From: Candidatus Latescibacterota bacterium
GTDB lineage: Bacteria > Latescibacterota > UBA2968
Reading direction: 5' to 3'
NCBI GenBank assembly: GCA_965116885.1
Contig: OZ220741.1
Coordinates: forward strand, 160,001 to 224,000
DNA: 64,000 bases
Shown here: positions 18,001 to 21,000 of the stretch, one piece after another
How the letters are laid out: each line of letters begins with the position of its first letter
How positions within the stretch are numbered: position 1 is the first letter of the stretch
Position numbers: made by a program

Positions 18001-21000
18001 TCTCGTAGCCCGGCACGCGCACCTCGCGATCGACCTCCACCGCAATCACCGTCGTGCGATCCACAGATCGCGCCTCTTCAATCGCCCTCATCAACCCTTC
18101 TCTGCCCTCGGGCCGCAACACATAAGCACCCAAACTCTCGGCATTTGTCGCCAAATCGGTCGGCACATTTTCGCCATCCAATAGCCCCGTCCGCTCATCG
18201 CGCATCCTGTACTCTGTCCCAAACTCATCCGCCCCCACAGCATCCGACAACCCCCCGATACTCGCAAAACCGTGATTATCCAGCAGCACAATATTCAGCT
18301 TAATCCCCTCCTGCACCGCCGTCGCAATCTCCTGCGCCATCATCAAATACGACCCATCCCCAACCATCACATACACCTCCCGGGAGGGATCGGCCATCTT
18401 AATGCCCAGCCCTCCGGCAATCTCGTATCCCATGCACGAATATCCATACTCCAGGTGGTACCCCTTGGGATTGCGCGTCCGCCACAACTTGTGGAGATCG
18501 CCCGGCATACTGCCCGCTGCACAAATCATCACATCCTCCGGCGCCGAACCTTCATTCACCGCGCCAATCACTTCACCCTGACTCAAAATGGGCCGATGCC
18601 CCAAATTGTAAATGCGATCCACCTCGGCCTCCCACGCCTCCCGAAAAGCGGCAACCCGCTGTGTCAAATCCCCCGACACGCGATATCCCTGCACCGCTTC
18701 TGTCAATTCTTCCAATACCACCCGCGCATCGCCCACCAGCGGCAGCGCCCCGTGTTTGGCCGCGTCAAATTCCGCCACATTAATCGCGATAAATTTCACA
18801 TCTGGATTTTGAAACGCCGTCTTTGAAGCCGTCGTAAAATCGCTCAACCGCGTACCAATCGCGATCACCAGATCCGCTTCCCGCGCGACAATATTCGCCC
18901 CCGGTGTGCCCGTCACACCCACCGCACCCAGATTATTGGCGTGGTCGTAATTAAGCGACCCCTTGCCCGCCTGTGTCTCCCCCACTGGCATACCCGTCTG
19001 CTCGACAAATGCCGCCAGCGCATCTGTCGCCTCGCTGTACAACACGCCCCCGCCCGCAATCACCATCGGTTGCACACTCTCCCGAATCCACGCCGCTGCT
19101 TTTGACACCAGATCGCGATCCGGCCGGTTGCGCGGCACCACCCACACCCGTCTTTCAAACAACGCTTCGGGATAATCAAACGCCTCTGTCTGCGTATCCT
19201 GCGGACAACACAGCGTCACAGCACCCGTCTCAACAGGCGACGTCAAAACCCGCATCGCCTCGGGCAATGCCAAAATCGCCTGATCCGCCCGATTCAACCG
19301 ATCCCAGTACCGCGACACCGGCTTAAAACAATCATTCACAGAAATATCCTGCGACGCATTGGACTCCAACTGCTGCAACACAGGCGCCACATTTCGCCGC
19401 GCAAAAATATCACCCGGCAACAACAACACCGGCAAACGATTAATCGTCGCCGTTGCCGCGCCCGTCACCATATTCGTCGCCCCCGGTCCAATCGACGTCG
19501 TACACGCCAGCGTACCCAACCGATTCTTCATCTTGGCATAAGCCGCAGCCGTATGCACCATCGCCTGTTCATTGCGCGTCTGGTAATACCGAAACTCATC
19601 GCGATATTCATGCAGCGCCTGACCAATCCCCGCCACATTCCCATGCCCAAAAATACCCGACATCCCCGCAAAAAAGGGCTGTTCAACCCCATCGCGCGAA
19701 ACGTACTGCGCCCTCAAAAACTGAACAATCGCCTGTGCCATTGTCAATCGTCGCGTCTTTGCCATGTTATGCCTCGTGAATAAAATCAACGAATCAACGA
19801 ATCAACGAATCAACGAATCCCGCCCATCCTCCCAAAATCAGTGCGTATCGCCATTCGTCTATTCGTCTATTCGTCTATTCGTCTATTCGTCTATTCGTCT
19901 ATTCGTCTATTCGTCTATTCGTCTATTCGTCTATTCGTCTATTCGCACATCCGGTCGATCGTGTACGCCGGGAGACGCTAAAATCCGCTTCTGTTGCTCG
20001 GTCAACCCCTCATAAACCGAACTATCGTACCCCTTTGGCGCGGAAATCAAATGCCCCGGACCGTATTTGTAAAGCAACACCCTGCGCTCGTGGTCTGCCC
20101 GCCACGGCAATGTGCCGTGTACCAGAGCCTCCGTAAAAAAAATCGCATCCCCCGCCTTTGCCTCGGGTTGCACAACATAGTGCGGAACCCGATCAAACCG
20201 CTGCACATCGCGCGGCAAATCCATCCTGAAATTGCTCTTGTGACTACCCCGCACACAGGCAAAACCCCCATCCCCCGCATCGGCGTCCGACAACACATAC
20301 GTCAACACCGACAAACCACACTGCATCACGCCATCTCGATACCTGTAATAATGGTGAAACAAATCCGGCTTGCCGCCGTGCAAACTGCCTCGCTTCCCAT
20401 TCTTCAGCATAAAAATGGCATAATCGTGATCCAGGCGGAACTTCGGTCCCAGCAAGTCAACGAGATAAGGCAACACTTTGGGATGATCGATTAAATCCCG
20501 ACACGCCACATCCCAATCTATAATACTCGGCGCGCGGCGCACACCTCTGGCATTGCCAAATTCGTTATCCGCCTCCACATCCCCGTAATCCCTGGGAAAC
20601 GCTCTATCCGACACCGCATTGAGCACATCCAATTCCTCGCGGCTCAACACATCTTTAATCACCAGATACCCATCGAGGTCAAACATAAACTTTTCTTCTG
20701 GGGTCATATCGCATACTCCTATCTATAGGGCAATGGCCTGGGATCGAGCCATTCAACAACTCGATCTTTAATCGCCCATGCAAAAAAGAAATTTCCGCGC
20801 GGCGTGTGATGTCCAATATAATACGGTTCCAAAAACGCCTGCACATCCCCCCGATATGTCGCGTACGCCTCCCGAAAAGCATCGCGTAAATCGATCACAG
20901 GCACATCCTTTGTCGCCAACCAATCCAAAAACGTCTGGTCAAAAAGCGGCTCGCCTTCTAATGCCCGAGCTATATTACTCGAACCAAATGACAAAATCAC

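Follow-up and report, generated by a model that had tools for sequence, protein, structure and literature searches.

The gene g00161 lies on the minus strand at positions 19931..20707 of a stretch of 64,000 nucleotides from a Candidatus Latescibacterota genome (the whole of which is referred to here as the window) and encodes an oxygenase of the PhyH family, 258 amino acids in length, whose metal-binding motif is of the type found in HygX. The locus raises the question of what such an enzyme contributes to an operon that ends in a sulfatase gene, and whether the many PhyH paralogues of this genome act, as proposed in the genome-wide survey's note, in the catabolism of sulfated glycans.

Predicted active site and fold

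The open reading frame of g00161 is intact. Pfam PhyH (PF05721) matched the product over profile positions 1-213 with 51.5 bits, the cut-off being 22, and was the only family listed in the Pfam scan, which gave no match to TauD (PF02668); the five TauD genes of the genome all lie away from g00161. The recognisable motifs are H110-G-G112, GSHK157, E193-ALV-H197 and R208, in which H110 and H197 would form the metal-binding His pair and R208, eleven residues past H197, is the predicted 2-oxoglutarate (2OG)-binding Arg. Two residues past the first His, where the H-x-D/E motif has its carboxylate, g00161 has G112. H110, E193, H197 and R208 are each the same in all of the 50 orthologues aligned; D93-H94-D95 is likewise invariant among the orthologues, and HygX has L-E-G at the aligned place.

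The AF2 model of g00161 (pLDDT 93.7, pTM 0.92) has a double-stranded beta-helix fold, the top 50 PDB entries retrieved with it all being Fe/2OG oxygenases with Z scores of at least 19.9. A hydrophobicity rule revealed no signal-like N-terminal segment. The protein shows neither the close similarity nor the acyl-CoA setting of phytanoyl-CoA 2-hydroxylase proper: its profile reached human PhyH (2A1X) with an E value of only 1.2e-5 and the operon contains no CoA-related gene. On the basis of sequence and model, the predicted iron ligands are His110, His197 and Glu193, as in HygX, and Arg208 would bind 2OG; metal binding itself, and the geometry of the site by alignment with HygX, are what we infer from these residues.

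Similarity to HygX

HygX of Streptomyces hygroscopicus (PDB 4XC9, 4XCA, 4XCB, 4ZPI) is the Fe(II)/2OG enzyme that serves as orthoester synthase in the hygromycin B pathway. It was the sole match to g00161 in a PDB sequence search (E 2e-9) and led the profile search with an E value of 4.5e-15, the next matches, human PhyH and EctD, beginning at 1.2e-5. With the model as query it was again first, both by Foldseek (4e-19) and by VIA-align (4xcb_D, Z 24.2, rmsd 2.2, 212 aa aligned, 26% identity), ahead of a runner-up with Z 21.8 at 14% identity. The earlier identification of HygX as the best structural and profile match is thereby upheld. Natural-product enzymes make up almost all of the structural neighbours that follow (FtmOx1, SptF, AndA, TlxIJ, EvdO1, SnoN). 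The PDB itself is skewed to enzymes of that kind.

Both proteins have a PhyH-type double-stranded beta-helix, a similar length, H-G-G in place of H-x-D, a carboxylate provided by E-x3-H, and the sequence GSHK. The alignment pairs H110-G-G112 and E193-A-L-V-H197 residue by residue with LHGG and EALMH in HygX, whose relocated Glu is described as a metal ligand in the available passages of PMC13374393. The survey's note had added a conserved Lys to this arrangement and equated it with the active-site Lys of HygX. That part does not stand. Lys137 of HygX, which takes up the space vacated by the absent Asp, aligns to S133 of g00161 in the sequence search or to V134 in the profile, and residues 126-141 contain neither K nor R. 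The same column is occupied by V (47), L (25), T (16) or A (13) among related cluster representatives and by Arg in six HygX-type paralogues of this genome. The Lys that is conserved in g00161 is K157 of GSHK, which matches K161 of HygX, and a K or R stands in its column in 81 of the 138 canonical-triad paralogues too.

The PhyH family and the relocated carboxylate

A search with a purpose-made profile identified PhyH in 180 of 14,159 ORFs. The non-overlapping set of 4,355 genes contained 176 PhyH genes, approximately 4% of the set, and 183 sulfatases; PhyH is thus the second largest family after the sulfatases, a rank already assigned to it on an earlier count of 168. The set was made by greedy ORF calling and includes at least one wrong choice, an ORF at 21908-22462 on the plus strand taken over a hexapeptide gene. 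A six-frame search with Pfam PF05721 gave at least 151 matches, a lower bound as 150 of 182 candidates were scored, and single-linkage BLAST families comprised 177 members for sulfatase, 133 for PhyH and 78 for the next largest.

Both His residues are present in 176 of 176 PhyH paralogues and the Arg in 172. D/E is missing at H+2 in 38, and 30 of the 176 have H-x-G/A/S. A carboxylate occurs four residues before the second His in 29 of these 38 non-canonical paralogues (E in 24, D in 5) compared with 7 of 138 canonical ones (Fisher p = 7e-19), and six further non-canonical paralogues have D-x4-H. One or other position, H2-4 or H2-5, retains a carboxylate in 35 of the 38, leaving just three of 176 without both. 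The relocation reported earlier for 30 paralogues was therefore recovered in 29, and 28 of these belong to a single clade of 36 members (support 0.957).

Beyond this genome the relocated Glu was present in 116 of 119 close homologues, and 106 of 123 full-length 50%-identity cluster representatives have the relocated-carboxylate arrangement. HygX-like sequences make up hundreds of such clusters with dozens of copies per genome. As judged from sequence, the relocated triad is widespread in metagenomes and does not merit its earlier description as rare.

A hydrophobic, signal-like N-terminus was detected in 10 of 176 PhyH proteins and 17 of 183 sulfatases by a crude hydrophobicity rule applied to the first 60 residues from longest-ORF starts. 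In two positive-control families the same test marked 35 of 37 and 26 of 28 members, the former family being taken as outer-membrane proteins without annotation.

Organisation of the g00161 operon

The same-strand block containing g00161 begins with a hexapeptide-repeat acyltransferase gene (21950..22483, minus strand), present in five of six congeners, followed by a gene for a 380-aa protein with a weak GDSL/SGNH-like match (20719..21861, minus strand; 21 bits, under the cut-off of 32.9). The latter lies 11 bp upstream of g00161, is a singleton in the genome and stands beside the oxygenase gene in five of six congeners. Downstream of g00161 is the gene for IolD, the TPP-dependent 3D-(3,5/4)-trihydroxycyclohexane-1,2-dione acylhydrolase (17897..19789, minus strand; 918 bits against a cut-off of 715). 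This is the sole true IolD of the genome and is an orphan, as a search of the genome found no IolB and no IolE that reached its cut-off. The next gene (15338..17884, minus strand) encodes 848 amino acids, with a metallohydrolase domain of the CehA/McbA type in the C-terminal part (residues 448-770), and overlaps by 11 bp that of the final member of the operon, a formylglycine-type sulfatase with a C-S-P-F-R motif and without a signal-like N-terminus (13945..15348, minus strand). On the other side of the block lie a divergent gene for a TonB-dependent receptor-like outer-membrane protein (CarboxypepD_reg and Plug; 22682..25339, plus strand) and a second sulfatase gene (25336..26760, minus strand), the product of which has a C-A-P-S-R motif and again lacks a signal-like N-terminus.

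The order PhyH-IolD-metallohydrolase-sulfatase is kept in six of six congeners at 87-97% identity. Contigs from sponge metatranscriptome RNA libraries, with at least 95% identity, gave partial cover of each gene in the operon, and the operon is apparently expressed; such contigs attest presence in RNA libraries rather than proven transcription, and parts of the operon left uncovered in single runs are not evidence of silence. With an oxygenase, an orphan IolD, two hydrolases and a sulfatase, the operon is a compact and conserved test case.

Association of PhyH genes with sulfatase genes

Same-strand PhyH-sulfatase pairs numbered 35, against 10.7 ± 3.0 in label shuffles and 9.4 ± 3.5 in circular shifts, which preserve clustering (500 trials each, with maxima of 21 and 22). 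The excess over chance noted previously is thus reproduced, at 3.3- to 3.7-fold over an expectation of about 10. A sulfatase gene lay no more than three genes away from 69 of 176 PhyH genes (67 of 168 in the earlier count), where 40 or 31 were expected. The intergenic gap was 50 bp or less in 22 of the 35 pairs, some of which overlap by 4 bp, and gene order within the pairs was without preference (18 vs 17). Within two genes of a PhyH gene, and by comparison with 1000 circular shifts, other PhyH genes (77 vs 23.6) and sulfatases (58 vs 24.6) were enriched, as was IS605 OrfB (6 vs 2.2). Enrichment of MR_MLE (12 vs 5.9), SDR (8 vs 3.4) and Zn-ADH (7 vs 2.3) was modest, with p of approximately 0.01 each, uncorrected for some 35 families, and a test of GFO/IDH/MocA gave none (14 vs 10.6).

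The adjacency could arise if PhyH and sulfatase genes merely filled the same variable catabolic islands without sharing a pathway. The self-clustering of PhyH genes, the nearby IS605 OrfB, the indifferent gene order and the joint variation of PhyH, sulfatase, MR_MLE and GFO counts within the genus (r 0.91-0.96) would all be expected of such islands. The circular shifts nevertheless leave the excess undiminished at 35 vs 9.4, over half of the gaps are operon-like in length, and the g00161 operon is conserved in six of six congeners with its sulfatase included, so that this explanation is considered doubtful, if still a serious one.

The genes found near PhyH and HygX-type genes encode enolase-superfamily dehydratases, SDR, Zn-ADH, GFO/IDH/MocA, RhaA, glycoside hydrolases, FGGY kinase and IolD, which supports a catabolic, sugar-like setting for the HygX-type genes. 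Among 78 neighbours analysed with Pfam, those of some paralogues were non-sugar genes, namely CoA-transferase III with enoyl-CoA hydratase (locus L001), an M60 peptidase and a serpin.

PhyH expansions in other genomes

The organism is a sponge-associated bacterium. One whole class of Latescibacterota carries 48-334 PhyH candidates in all but two of 53 sampled genomes, compared with a median of 2 in the other classes. Within this phylum, sister families reach 152 PhyH with 8 sulfatases, and Poribacteria have 156-242 PhyH candidates with 33-53 sulfatase candidates. Relatives of g00161 with 50-58% identity were located at 21 poribacterial loci, at none of which was a sulfatase found within 10 kb (0/21). 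In a set of 80 related loci drawn from several phyla, MR_MLE was the most frequent neighbour other than PhyH, at 19 loci (10 in Latescibacterota, 6 in Poribacteria, 1 in Gemmatimonadota and 2 elsewhere), followed by SDR (9), DUF6785 (8), EamA (7) and xylose-isomerase-like TIM barrels (6 + 5).

In 20 congeners PhyH and sulfatase counts are close to 1:1 (r 0.96, or a partial r of 0.95 once genome size is accounted for). The interpretation of this co-variation as a specific coupling was dropped, as the controls correlate equally well (MR_MLE, r 0.95; GFO, r 0.93). In the 15 gene-rich congeners the correlation of PhyH with sulfatases was 0.68 vs 0.92 with MR_MLE; the five low-count congeners may be one lineage. 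The sulfatase link is real in this genome, yet neither general nor specific. Of the proposal that the paralogues are catabolic enzymes of sulfated glycans, the catabolic and sugar-like surroundings are consequently retained and the defining role of sulfation is not.

The expansion of PhyH (pfam05721) is already published for Poribacteria, in which it was stated to exceed 1.9% of genes in the available text of Kamke 2014 (PMC3909097), and the present finding extends it to another phylum. PhyH is the most or second most abundant family in both cases, with highly diverged paralogues in sponge-associated organisms. Unlike the 21 poribacterial loci, the present genome, from a different phylum, links PhyH statistically to sulfatases, which the main text of Kamke 2014 does not mention. 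That study was the only one found in the literature on phytanoyl and Latescibacter. A literature search for a link between PhyH and sulfatases in polysaccharide use or in sponges returned one match, which was unrelated, and the accessible parts of a paper on sponge Latescibacterota (PMC12993501) mention neither phytanoyl nor sulfatases. A parallel is offered by SAR202 groups I/II, in which sulfatases and enolase-superfamily (MR_MLE-type) genes are co-expanded, read as an adaptation to complex organic matter in the portions available of Saw 2020 (PMC6946804), where PhyH and phytanoyl go unmentioned. SAR202 belongs to a different phylum and is free-living, and represents a marine heterotroph with the same co-expansion as the present genome, which has 183 sulfatase and 44 MR_MLE genes.

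Proposed function and alternatives

The reading preferred here, held as a whole with moderate confidence, is that g00161 is a cytoplasmic PhyH oxygenase of small polyhydroxylated-compound catabolism that hands its product to IolD. The enzyme would be active in the cytoplasm as an Fe(II)/2OG oxygenase and would represent an old, monophyletic and widespread HygX-like subfamily within the expansion of about 176 genes, an expansion common to a whole class of Latescibacterota and of separate origin in other sponge-associated phyla. Judging by their neighbourhood, the paralogues may break down small polyhydroxylated sugar- or cyclitol-like compounds imported by the cell, each hydroxylating a C-H, probably beside an O-linked substituent, to yield a carbonyl that could then enter dehydrogenase, dehydratase or C-C hydrolase steps. 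The product of g00161 would pass to the orphan IolD, with de-esterification by the neighbouring hydrolases and sulfatase taking place before or after. Sulfatases would be one among several partner families and not the defining one.

An alternative of much the same standing as the shared islands, and thus also doubtful, is that the paralogues act on small non-carbohydrate host molecules (osmolytes, quaternary amines, phosphonates, amino-acid derivatives, isoprenoid or sterol sulfates, acyl-CoA) in the manner of EctD, PhnY and phytanoyl-CoA hydroxylase, sugar genes simply sharing the islands. Human PhyH and EctD do come next in the PDB profile search, although these matches are ten orders of magnitude weaker than that to HygX, the nearest characterised relative, which works on a sugar carbon. 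PhnY-like PhyH genes adjoin phnZ in Poribacteria according to the available text of Kamke 2014 (PMC3909097), and the L001 paralogue adjoins CoA-transferase III and enoyl-CoA hydratase; against this, sugar-acid enzymes recur as neighbours across phyla. About 90% of the sulfatases are predicted to be cytoplasmic, which would suit small sulfated metabolites, and it is unlikely that 176 strongly diverged paralogues share a single substrate class.

Rather less probable is a reading in which the PhyH paralogues would amount to a sizeable and so far unrecognised group of catabolic enzymes for the 'oxidative deprotection' of decorated sugars and cyclitols. Hydroxylation of a carbon bearing a sulfate ester, methyl ether, amine or glycosidic oxygen would release the substituent, and the resulting keto-sugar, lactone or dione would pass to reductases, sugar-acid dehydratases or IolD, making these enzymes an oxidative counterpart of the sulfatases, with which they occur in near-equal numbers in the genus. 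Equally improbable is the idea that they are 'type II sulfatase-like' or de-etherifying enzymes, which would hydroxylate the sugar carbon of a sulfate ester or of an O-methyl or similar group, leave a keto-sugar and serve esters beyond the reach of hydrolysis. Oxidative sulfate-ester cleavage is accepted Fe(II)/2OG dioxygenase chemistry, as represented in the available text of PMC5426288 by the type II sulfatases AtsK (Pseudomonas putida) and Rv3406, and this chemistry, common to the superfamily, is a possible reason for a link to sulfate-ester metabolism. AtsK and its like, however, belong to the TauD family, have a canonical H-x-D triad and act on alkyl sulfates, not sugars, as known substrates, whereas g00161 matches PhyH alone and the five TauD genes stand apart. 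The operon-like adjacency to sulfatases, the near-equal numbers in 20 congeners, the ketoreductase-type neighbours (SDR, Zn-ADH, epimerase family, GFO) that could restore a hydroxyl, and the position of IolD, an enzyme for a cyclic 1,2-dione, beside g00161 are all compatible with such a role. Expansions with few sulfatases (152 vs 8, 121 vs 9 and 239 vs 33 candidates), the absence of sulfatases from the 21 poribacterial loci and the equal co-variation of MR_MLE and GFO argue against it, as does the consideration that an oxygenase removing sulfate by itself would make an adjacent hydrolytic sulfatase needless.

Tailoring of secondary metabolites as by HygX, that is, orthoester formation or oxidative cyclisation on glycosylated natural products, is very unlikely, even though HygX is the nearest solved relative and further structural neighbours are mostly natural-product enzymes, a ranking to be set against the skew of the PDB. 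HygX lies in an aminoglycoside cluster and g00161 in a catabolic operon among genes for IolD, hydrolases and a sulfatase, where neither glycosyltransferase nor aminocyclitol genes indicative of an orthosomycin or aminoglycoside context were seen; nor were PKS, NRPS, glycosyltransferase or sugar-nucleotide genes seen in the 78 neighbours of HygX-type genes and the window. Identity to HygX is just 26%, its Lys137 is missing, and a type of gene that, unlike HygX, forms hundreds of clusters with dozens of paralogues per genome is ill-suited to a pathway-specific role. Among the matches listed in the HygX literature, the titles and abstracts reported no catabolic relatives.

Sponges are rich in halogenated compounds, and Fe/2OG halogenases of the SyrB2, WelO5 and BesD type have H-x-G/A for H-x-D, as does g00161, and are entirely without a carboxylate ligand. 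It is extremely improbable that the 30 of 176 paralogues with Gly, Ala or Ser in place of the Asp are halogenases on that account, and they are most likely oxygenases as the survey's note had held, given that a carboxylate persists at H2-4 or H2-5 in 35 of 38 non-canonical members in step with loss of the Asp, that E193 is invariant in the orthologues and nearly so in close homologues, and that the corresponding residue is a ligand in HygX (available passages of PMC13374393).

If the paralogues do act on decorated sugars, they would constitute an O2-dependent, non-hydrolytic branch of marine and host glycan breakdown, account for the largest unexplained family expansion of several sponge-symbiont phyla, a question since 2014, and provide many catalysts for selective carbohydrate C-H oxidation. 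As it stands, the finding sharpens the targets for testing and widens a published expansion, with no new chemistry shown.

A role for PhyH proteins as formylglycine maturases, through beta-hydroxylation of Cys or Ser in cytoplasmic sulfatases, was rejected as an explanation for the paralogues in general. Conventional FGE-family genes number 16 in the genome; their family, identified by locus and size, does not lie near PhyH genes (0 vs 2.0), and PhyH far outnumber sulfatases in Poribacteria and the sister families. One of the 16, resembling the O2-dependent formylglycine-generating enzyme, is in the window at 62507..63379 on the minus strand; the presence of this family is taken here to indicate aerobic life.

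The 141-bp gap that precedes IolD contains a tandem array of the octamer ATTCGTCT (19853..19940), the first copies of which encode the end of the g00161 product and include its stop codon.

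Sequence and predicted structure of g00161

The open reading frame of g00161, a PhyH-family oxygenase gene at window positions 19931-20707 (-), encodes 258 residues. PhyH (PF05721) was its sole Pfam match (E 2e-13, 51.5 bits against a cut-off of 22) with the full profile covered, and NCBIfam held no model for it. In place of the family H-x-D/E, g00161 has H110-G-G112, together with GSHK157, E193-A-L-V-H197 and R208, which lies 11 residues past the second histidine. A single-sequence search of all PDB sequences matched HygX alone (4xc9 and 4xcb, E 2e-9), the Fe(II)/2OG orthoester synthase of hygromycin B biosynthesis, and the LHGG, GSHKxNF and EALxHGT motifs of the two proteins align residue for residue. 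A 50-orthologue profile again placed HygX first (E 4.5e-15), followed by human PhyH (1.2e-5) and EctD (2.1e-5). The AlphaFold2 model built on this 50-orthologue alignment (mean pLDDT 93.7, pTM 0.92) yielded HygX as the top Foldseek match (E 4e-19); VIA-align returned 4xcb_D with Z 24.2, rmsd 2.2 over 212 residues and 26% identity, and ranked FtmOx1 second (Z 21.8, 14% identity). HygX had been named as the nearest structure in the genome-wide survey's note, with model and alignment values near those obtained here. g00161 fits best into the HygX-like branch of the PhyH family, as a new member. Its motifs and model predict an Fe/2OG oxygenase of ordinary mechanism whose carboxylate is shifted, rather than a halogenase.

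The relocated carboxylate and the lysine

Both histidines are present in all 176 PhyH paralogues of the genome and the arginine in 172. Two residues past the first histidine, 137 have Asp, one has Glu and 38 have another residue (G 22, S 5, A 3, N 3, others 5). An acid four residues before the second histidine occurs in 29 of these 38 non-canonical paralogues (E 24, D 5) against 7 of the 138 canonical ones (Fisher p = 7e-19). Six of the remaining nine carry F-F-x-D-G-x-x-x-H, with the carboxylate one residue further off, so that both alternatives are missing in just 3 of the 38. The count of 29 stands beside the 30 reported earlier. In a FastTree phylogeny of the 176, one clade of 36 (support 0.957) holds 28 of the 29 HygX-type genes and the six F-F-x-D-G-x-x-x-H genes; the relocated arrangement is therefore the mark of a single old subfamily and not of repeated accidents.

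The arrangement had been described as rare, which the wider homologues contradict. Relatives of g00161 numbered 1,558 clusters of 90% identity at E 1e-10 or better, and 1,937 representatives of 50%-identity clusters at E 0.001 or better (737 at 1e-10). Of 119 close homologues, 116 carry the HygX-type motif, as do 106 of the 123 50%-identity representatives spanning both histidines. Nor could the proposed conservation of the HygX active-site lysine be upheld. The passages on HygX in a review of orthoester biosynthesis give its motif as H-X-G E-X3-H, with Lys137 occupying the gap of the missing acid (PMC13374393). Because entry numbering and sequence numbering coincide in 4xc9, Lys137 is the K of Y-V-K-A-L, which falls opposite S133 or V134 of g00161 in two HMMER alignments; residues 126-141 of g00161 contain neither K nor R. 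Related cluster representatives have V, L, T or A in the Lys137 column, and 6 of the 29 HygX-type paralogues have Arg. The lysine that is conserved, K157 of GSHK (28 of 29 HygX-type paralogues), is equivalent to HygX K161, and its column is K or R in 81 of the 138 canonical paralogues too. These two points apart, the counts and motifs of the earlier note are real.

Five proteins of 580-716 aa were also recorded, at loci L010:1842-3584 (-) and L021:13255-15018 (-) and at positions 2902359-2904104, 2904297-2906042 and 4780711-4782861 of the genome contig (G000:C1). The two scanned with Pfam are tandem PhyH-PhyH fusions; length and motif point to the same for the other three. The N-terminal half of the L010 fusion lacks both histidine ligands (T and Q instead), and the C-terminal half has H-x-S/N/G with the carboxylate as D-x4-H (FFxDGxxxH). 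By analogy with the TlxIJ heterodimer, which was among the fold matches, such a fusion may form a built-in pseudo-dimer.

Size and distribution of the PhyH family

The genome is a single contig of 5,557,749 bases. Six-frame Pfam searches gave at least 151 PhyH matches (150 of 182 candidates scored) and at least 150 sulfatase matches (150 of 188 scored). Since only part of the candidates was scored, profiles were iterated from the window proteins over all 14,159 ORFs of at least 90 aa, yielding 180 ORFs of PhyH type and 184 of sulfatase type. After greedy removal of overlaps, 4,355 genes remained, 176 of them PhyH (about 4%) and 183 sulfatases; the largest BLAST single-linkage families were sulfatase (177), PhyH (133), GFO/IDH/MocA (78) and MR_MLE of the enolase superfamily (44). 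From profile counts and family ranks alike, PhyH is therefore the second largest family, as previously claimed, and the 168 genes reported then lie inside the range of the present counts.

Loci 96-97% identical to g00161 belong to Candidatus Latescibacterota MAGs. First-look counts of PhyH candidates in a sample of 81 Latescibacterota genomes were 87-211 in the genus (20 genomes), 60-334 in other genera of the same family, 48-88 in a second family and 3-289 in a third (21 genomes, two of them at 3-4), against a median of 2 (range 0-62) in the 28 genomes of other classes. It follows that the expansion is old and spans the whole class. Beyond the phylum, 239, 242 and 156 candidates were counted in three poribacterial genomes and 117 in a Trueperaceae MAG. 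The passages on PhyH in Kamke et al. (2014; PMC3909097) describe it as the most abundant Pfam family in Poribacteria (>1.9% of genes), of unknown function, and the main text of that paper does not mention sulfatases. The literature searched contained no paper that ties PhyH to sulfatases or describes a PhyH expansion in Latescibacterota.

Association with sulfatase genes

The 3.6-fold excess of PhyH-sulfatase adjacency claimed for this genome was reproduced at 3.3- to 3.7-fold. The 4,355-gene set contains 35 same-strand neighbour pairs, against 10.7 ± 3.0 expected from label shuffles and 9.4 ± 3.5 from circular shifts, which preserve the clustering of each family; the maxima in 500 trials each were 21 and 22. 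Of the 176 PhyH genes, 69 have a sulfatase no more than three genes away (40 or 31 expected). The gap is at most 50 bp in 22 of the 35 pairs and at most 150 bp in 32, with several 4-bp overlaps, and gene order shows no preference (18 against 17). Three of five TauD-family Fe/2OG genes also directly adjoin a sulfatase or PhyH gene: on G000:C1, 3123831-3124628 (sulfatase 3124783-3125775), 5162301-5163050 (PhyH 5161567-5162124) and 319002-319757 (PhyH 318012-318692).

Four results argue against a special tie between the two families. Firstly, across 80 loci encoding g00161 relatives, a sulfatase lay within 10 kb in 25 of 43 loci from Latescibacterota, 2 of 5 from Gemmatimonadota and 4 of 11 others, and in none of the 21 poribacterial loci (339 kb, 51 PhyH ORFs). 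A poribacterial genome of 6 Mb has 33-53 sulfatase candidates; because only about two would be expected by chance across the 21 loci, this shows no association rather than avoidance. Secondly, expansions occur in sulfatase-poor genomes, with PhyH and sulfatase candidates at 152 and 8, 121 and 9, and 224 and 30 in the third family, and at 48-88 and 19-35 in the second. Thirdly, PhyH counts in the genus correlate with sulfatases (r 0.96; 0.95 with genome size removed), but also with MR_MLE (0.95) and GFO/IDH/MocA (0.93), and in its 15 gene-rich genomes r was 0.68 for sulfatases against 0.92 for MR_MLE, all from loose first-look counts in related, hence non-independent, genomes. Finally, MR_MLE was the commonest non-PhyH neighbour in the 80 loci (19: 10 Latescibacterota, 6 Poribacteria, 1 Gemmatimonadota, 2 other), followed by SDR (9), DUF6785/DUF6784 membrane proteins (8), EamA transporters (7), xylose-isomerase-like TIM barrels (6 and 5) and aldehyde dehydrogenase (5). 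An ankyrin-repeat protein gene sits directly beside the oxygenase gene in 8 of the 21 poribacterial loci (e.g. L095:10747-11913 (+)).

Within the genome, families up to two genes from PhyH were compared with 1000 circular shifts (about 35 families, p uncorrected). Observed against expected, PhyH itself (77, 23.6), sulfatase (58, 24.6), MR_MLE (12, 5.9; p 0.012), SDR (8, 3.4; p 0.009) and Zn-ADH (7, 2.3; p 0.008) were enriched, GFO/IDH/MocA was not (14, 10.6) and ABC ATPases were depleted (1, 5.7). In the same uncorrected comparison, an IS605 OrfB/TnpB-like family of 16 members (e.g. L002:2807-3928 (+)) gave 6 against 2.2 (p 0.011), which hints that mobile elements help to shuffle PhyH islands.

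When 78 genes lying up to two positions from the 28 HygX-type genes beyond the window were scanned with Pfam, the matches included NAD-epimerase family (4), GFO/IDH/MocA (3), MR_MLE (2), gluconolactonase, RhaA, GH10, GH4, fucosidase-like GHL6, an oligogalacturonate-lyase-like protein, a PL4-domain protein, FGGY kinase, SDR, ADH, AKR, Ldh_2, a DHDPS-family protein and a sodium:solute symporter, besides CoA-transferase III with enoyl-CoA hydratase, an M60 peptidase and a serpin; polyketide, non-ribosomal peptide and glycosyltransferase genes were absent from the 78. The CoA-transferase III and enoyl-CoA hydratase genes (L001:3992-5985 (-)) precede the HygX-type paralogue L001:6001-7008; their resemblance to CaiB/CaiD suggests that this paralogue acts on an acyl-CoA or a carnitine-like compound.

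The sulfatase link is one facet of a wider tie to sugar-acid catabolism and is absent in Poribacteria. Of the earlier proposal, the enrichment near sulfatases, the catabolic, sugar-like context and the view that these are most likely not halogenases are supported; the sulfatase tie is not specific.

Predicted location and role

A crude test detected a hydrophobic N-terminal segment in 10 of 176 PhyH proteins, 17 of 183 sulfatases and 4 of 44 MR_MLE proteins, compared with 35 of 37 and 26 of 28 in two positive-control families, the former unannotated and taken to be outer-membrane proteins. With so few hydrophobic N-termini, PhyH and sulfatase proteins are probably cytoplasmic for the most part and would be expected to work on small molecules that have been imported. 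By this crude test 166 of the 183 sulfatases (about 90%) lack the segment and most appear cytoplasmic, which seemed unusual for a sulfatase-rich glycan degrader. The 16 FGE-family genes of the genome fit an O2-using organism. One lies inside the window (62507-63379), with two multi-haem cytochrome c genes directly downstream (58470-62494 (-)), one of which is a fusion with TPR and HEAT repeats.

The most probable role of g00161 is to oxidise a small molecule resembling a sugar or cyclitol as part of cytoplasmic catabolism, a view we hold with about as much doubt as confidence; sulfated glycans in particular are a possible substrate. Enzymes of this superfamily are known to hydroxylate beside a heteroatom, after which the substituent is lost; Type II sulfatases are a documented example (PMC5426288). 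Further examples of such chemistry are TfdA, AlkB, KanJ and the P450 demethylation of methyl-galactose. On the strength of that chemistry, the boldest reading allowed, and an improbable one, is that the paralogues would hydroxylate next to a heteroatom whose substituent is then lost.

The g00161 operon

Upstream of g00161 on the minus strand are genes for a hexapeptide acyltransferase (22483-21950) and a 380-aa protein whose SGNH-like match is weak (21861-20719), the latter ending 11 bp before the oxygenase gene. A 141-bp gap separates g00161 from IolD (19789-17897 (-)); 12 bp later starts the gene for an 848-aa protein with a CehA/McbA metallohydrolase domain, overlapped by 11 bp by a Cys-type sulfatase gene, both also (-). 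A TonB-dependent receptor gene is divergent from the operon. Oxygenase, IolD, metallohydrolase and sulfatase occur together in six of six congener loci (87-97% identity), and the acyltransferase and 380-aa protein in five.

With 918 bits (cut-off 715), IolD stands alone in the genome; scores for five further TPP enzymes were 173-221 bits. In the classical inositol pathway, IolD opens a cyclic 1,2-dione. The genome has no IolB at E 1e-10 and no IolE above cut-off (best match 87 bits against 290), and thus the classical pathway is incomplete by gene content. The orphan IolD may take its substrate from another source, for which the adjacent oxygenase would be the obvious candidate supplier.

Contigs from sponge metatranscriptome RNA libraries (three runs of one study, one of another) matched parts of every operon gene at 95% identity or more, with 19985-20546 of the oxygenase gene among the stretches covered. 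Such cover fits expression of the operon but could also come from DNA, which can occur in such libraries.

The strong negative GC skew of this stretch makes a compositional artefact the probable explanation of a 766-aa open frame at 15884-18184 (+), which lies antisense to the metallohydrolase gene and to part of IolD; this frame shows that long ORFs there are no evidence of genes. About 11 copies of the octamer ATTCGTCT at 19853-19940 overlap the 3' end of the oxygenase gene, whose last codons and stop codon come from the array, and four copies of a second octamer, AATCAACG, lie just upstream of IolD (19784-19815). The genome has 14 sites with arrays of at least three ATTCGTCT copies, and such arrays account for 11 of its 17 exact arrays of period 7-9. 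RNA-library contigs pile up on these arrays with many loose ends, and the unit is therefore also common elsewhere in the sponge samples.
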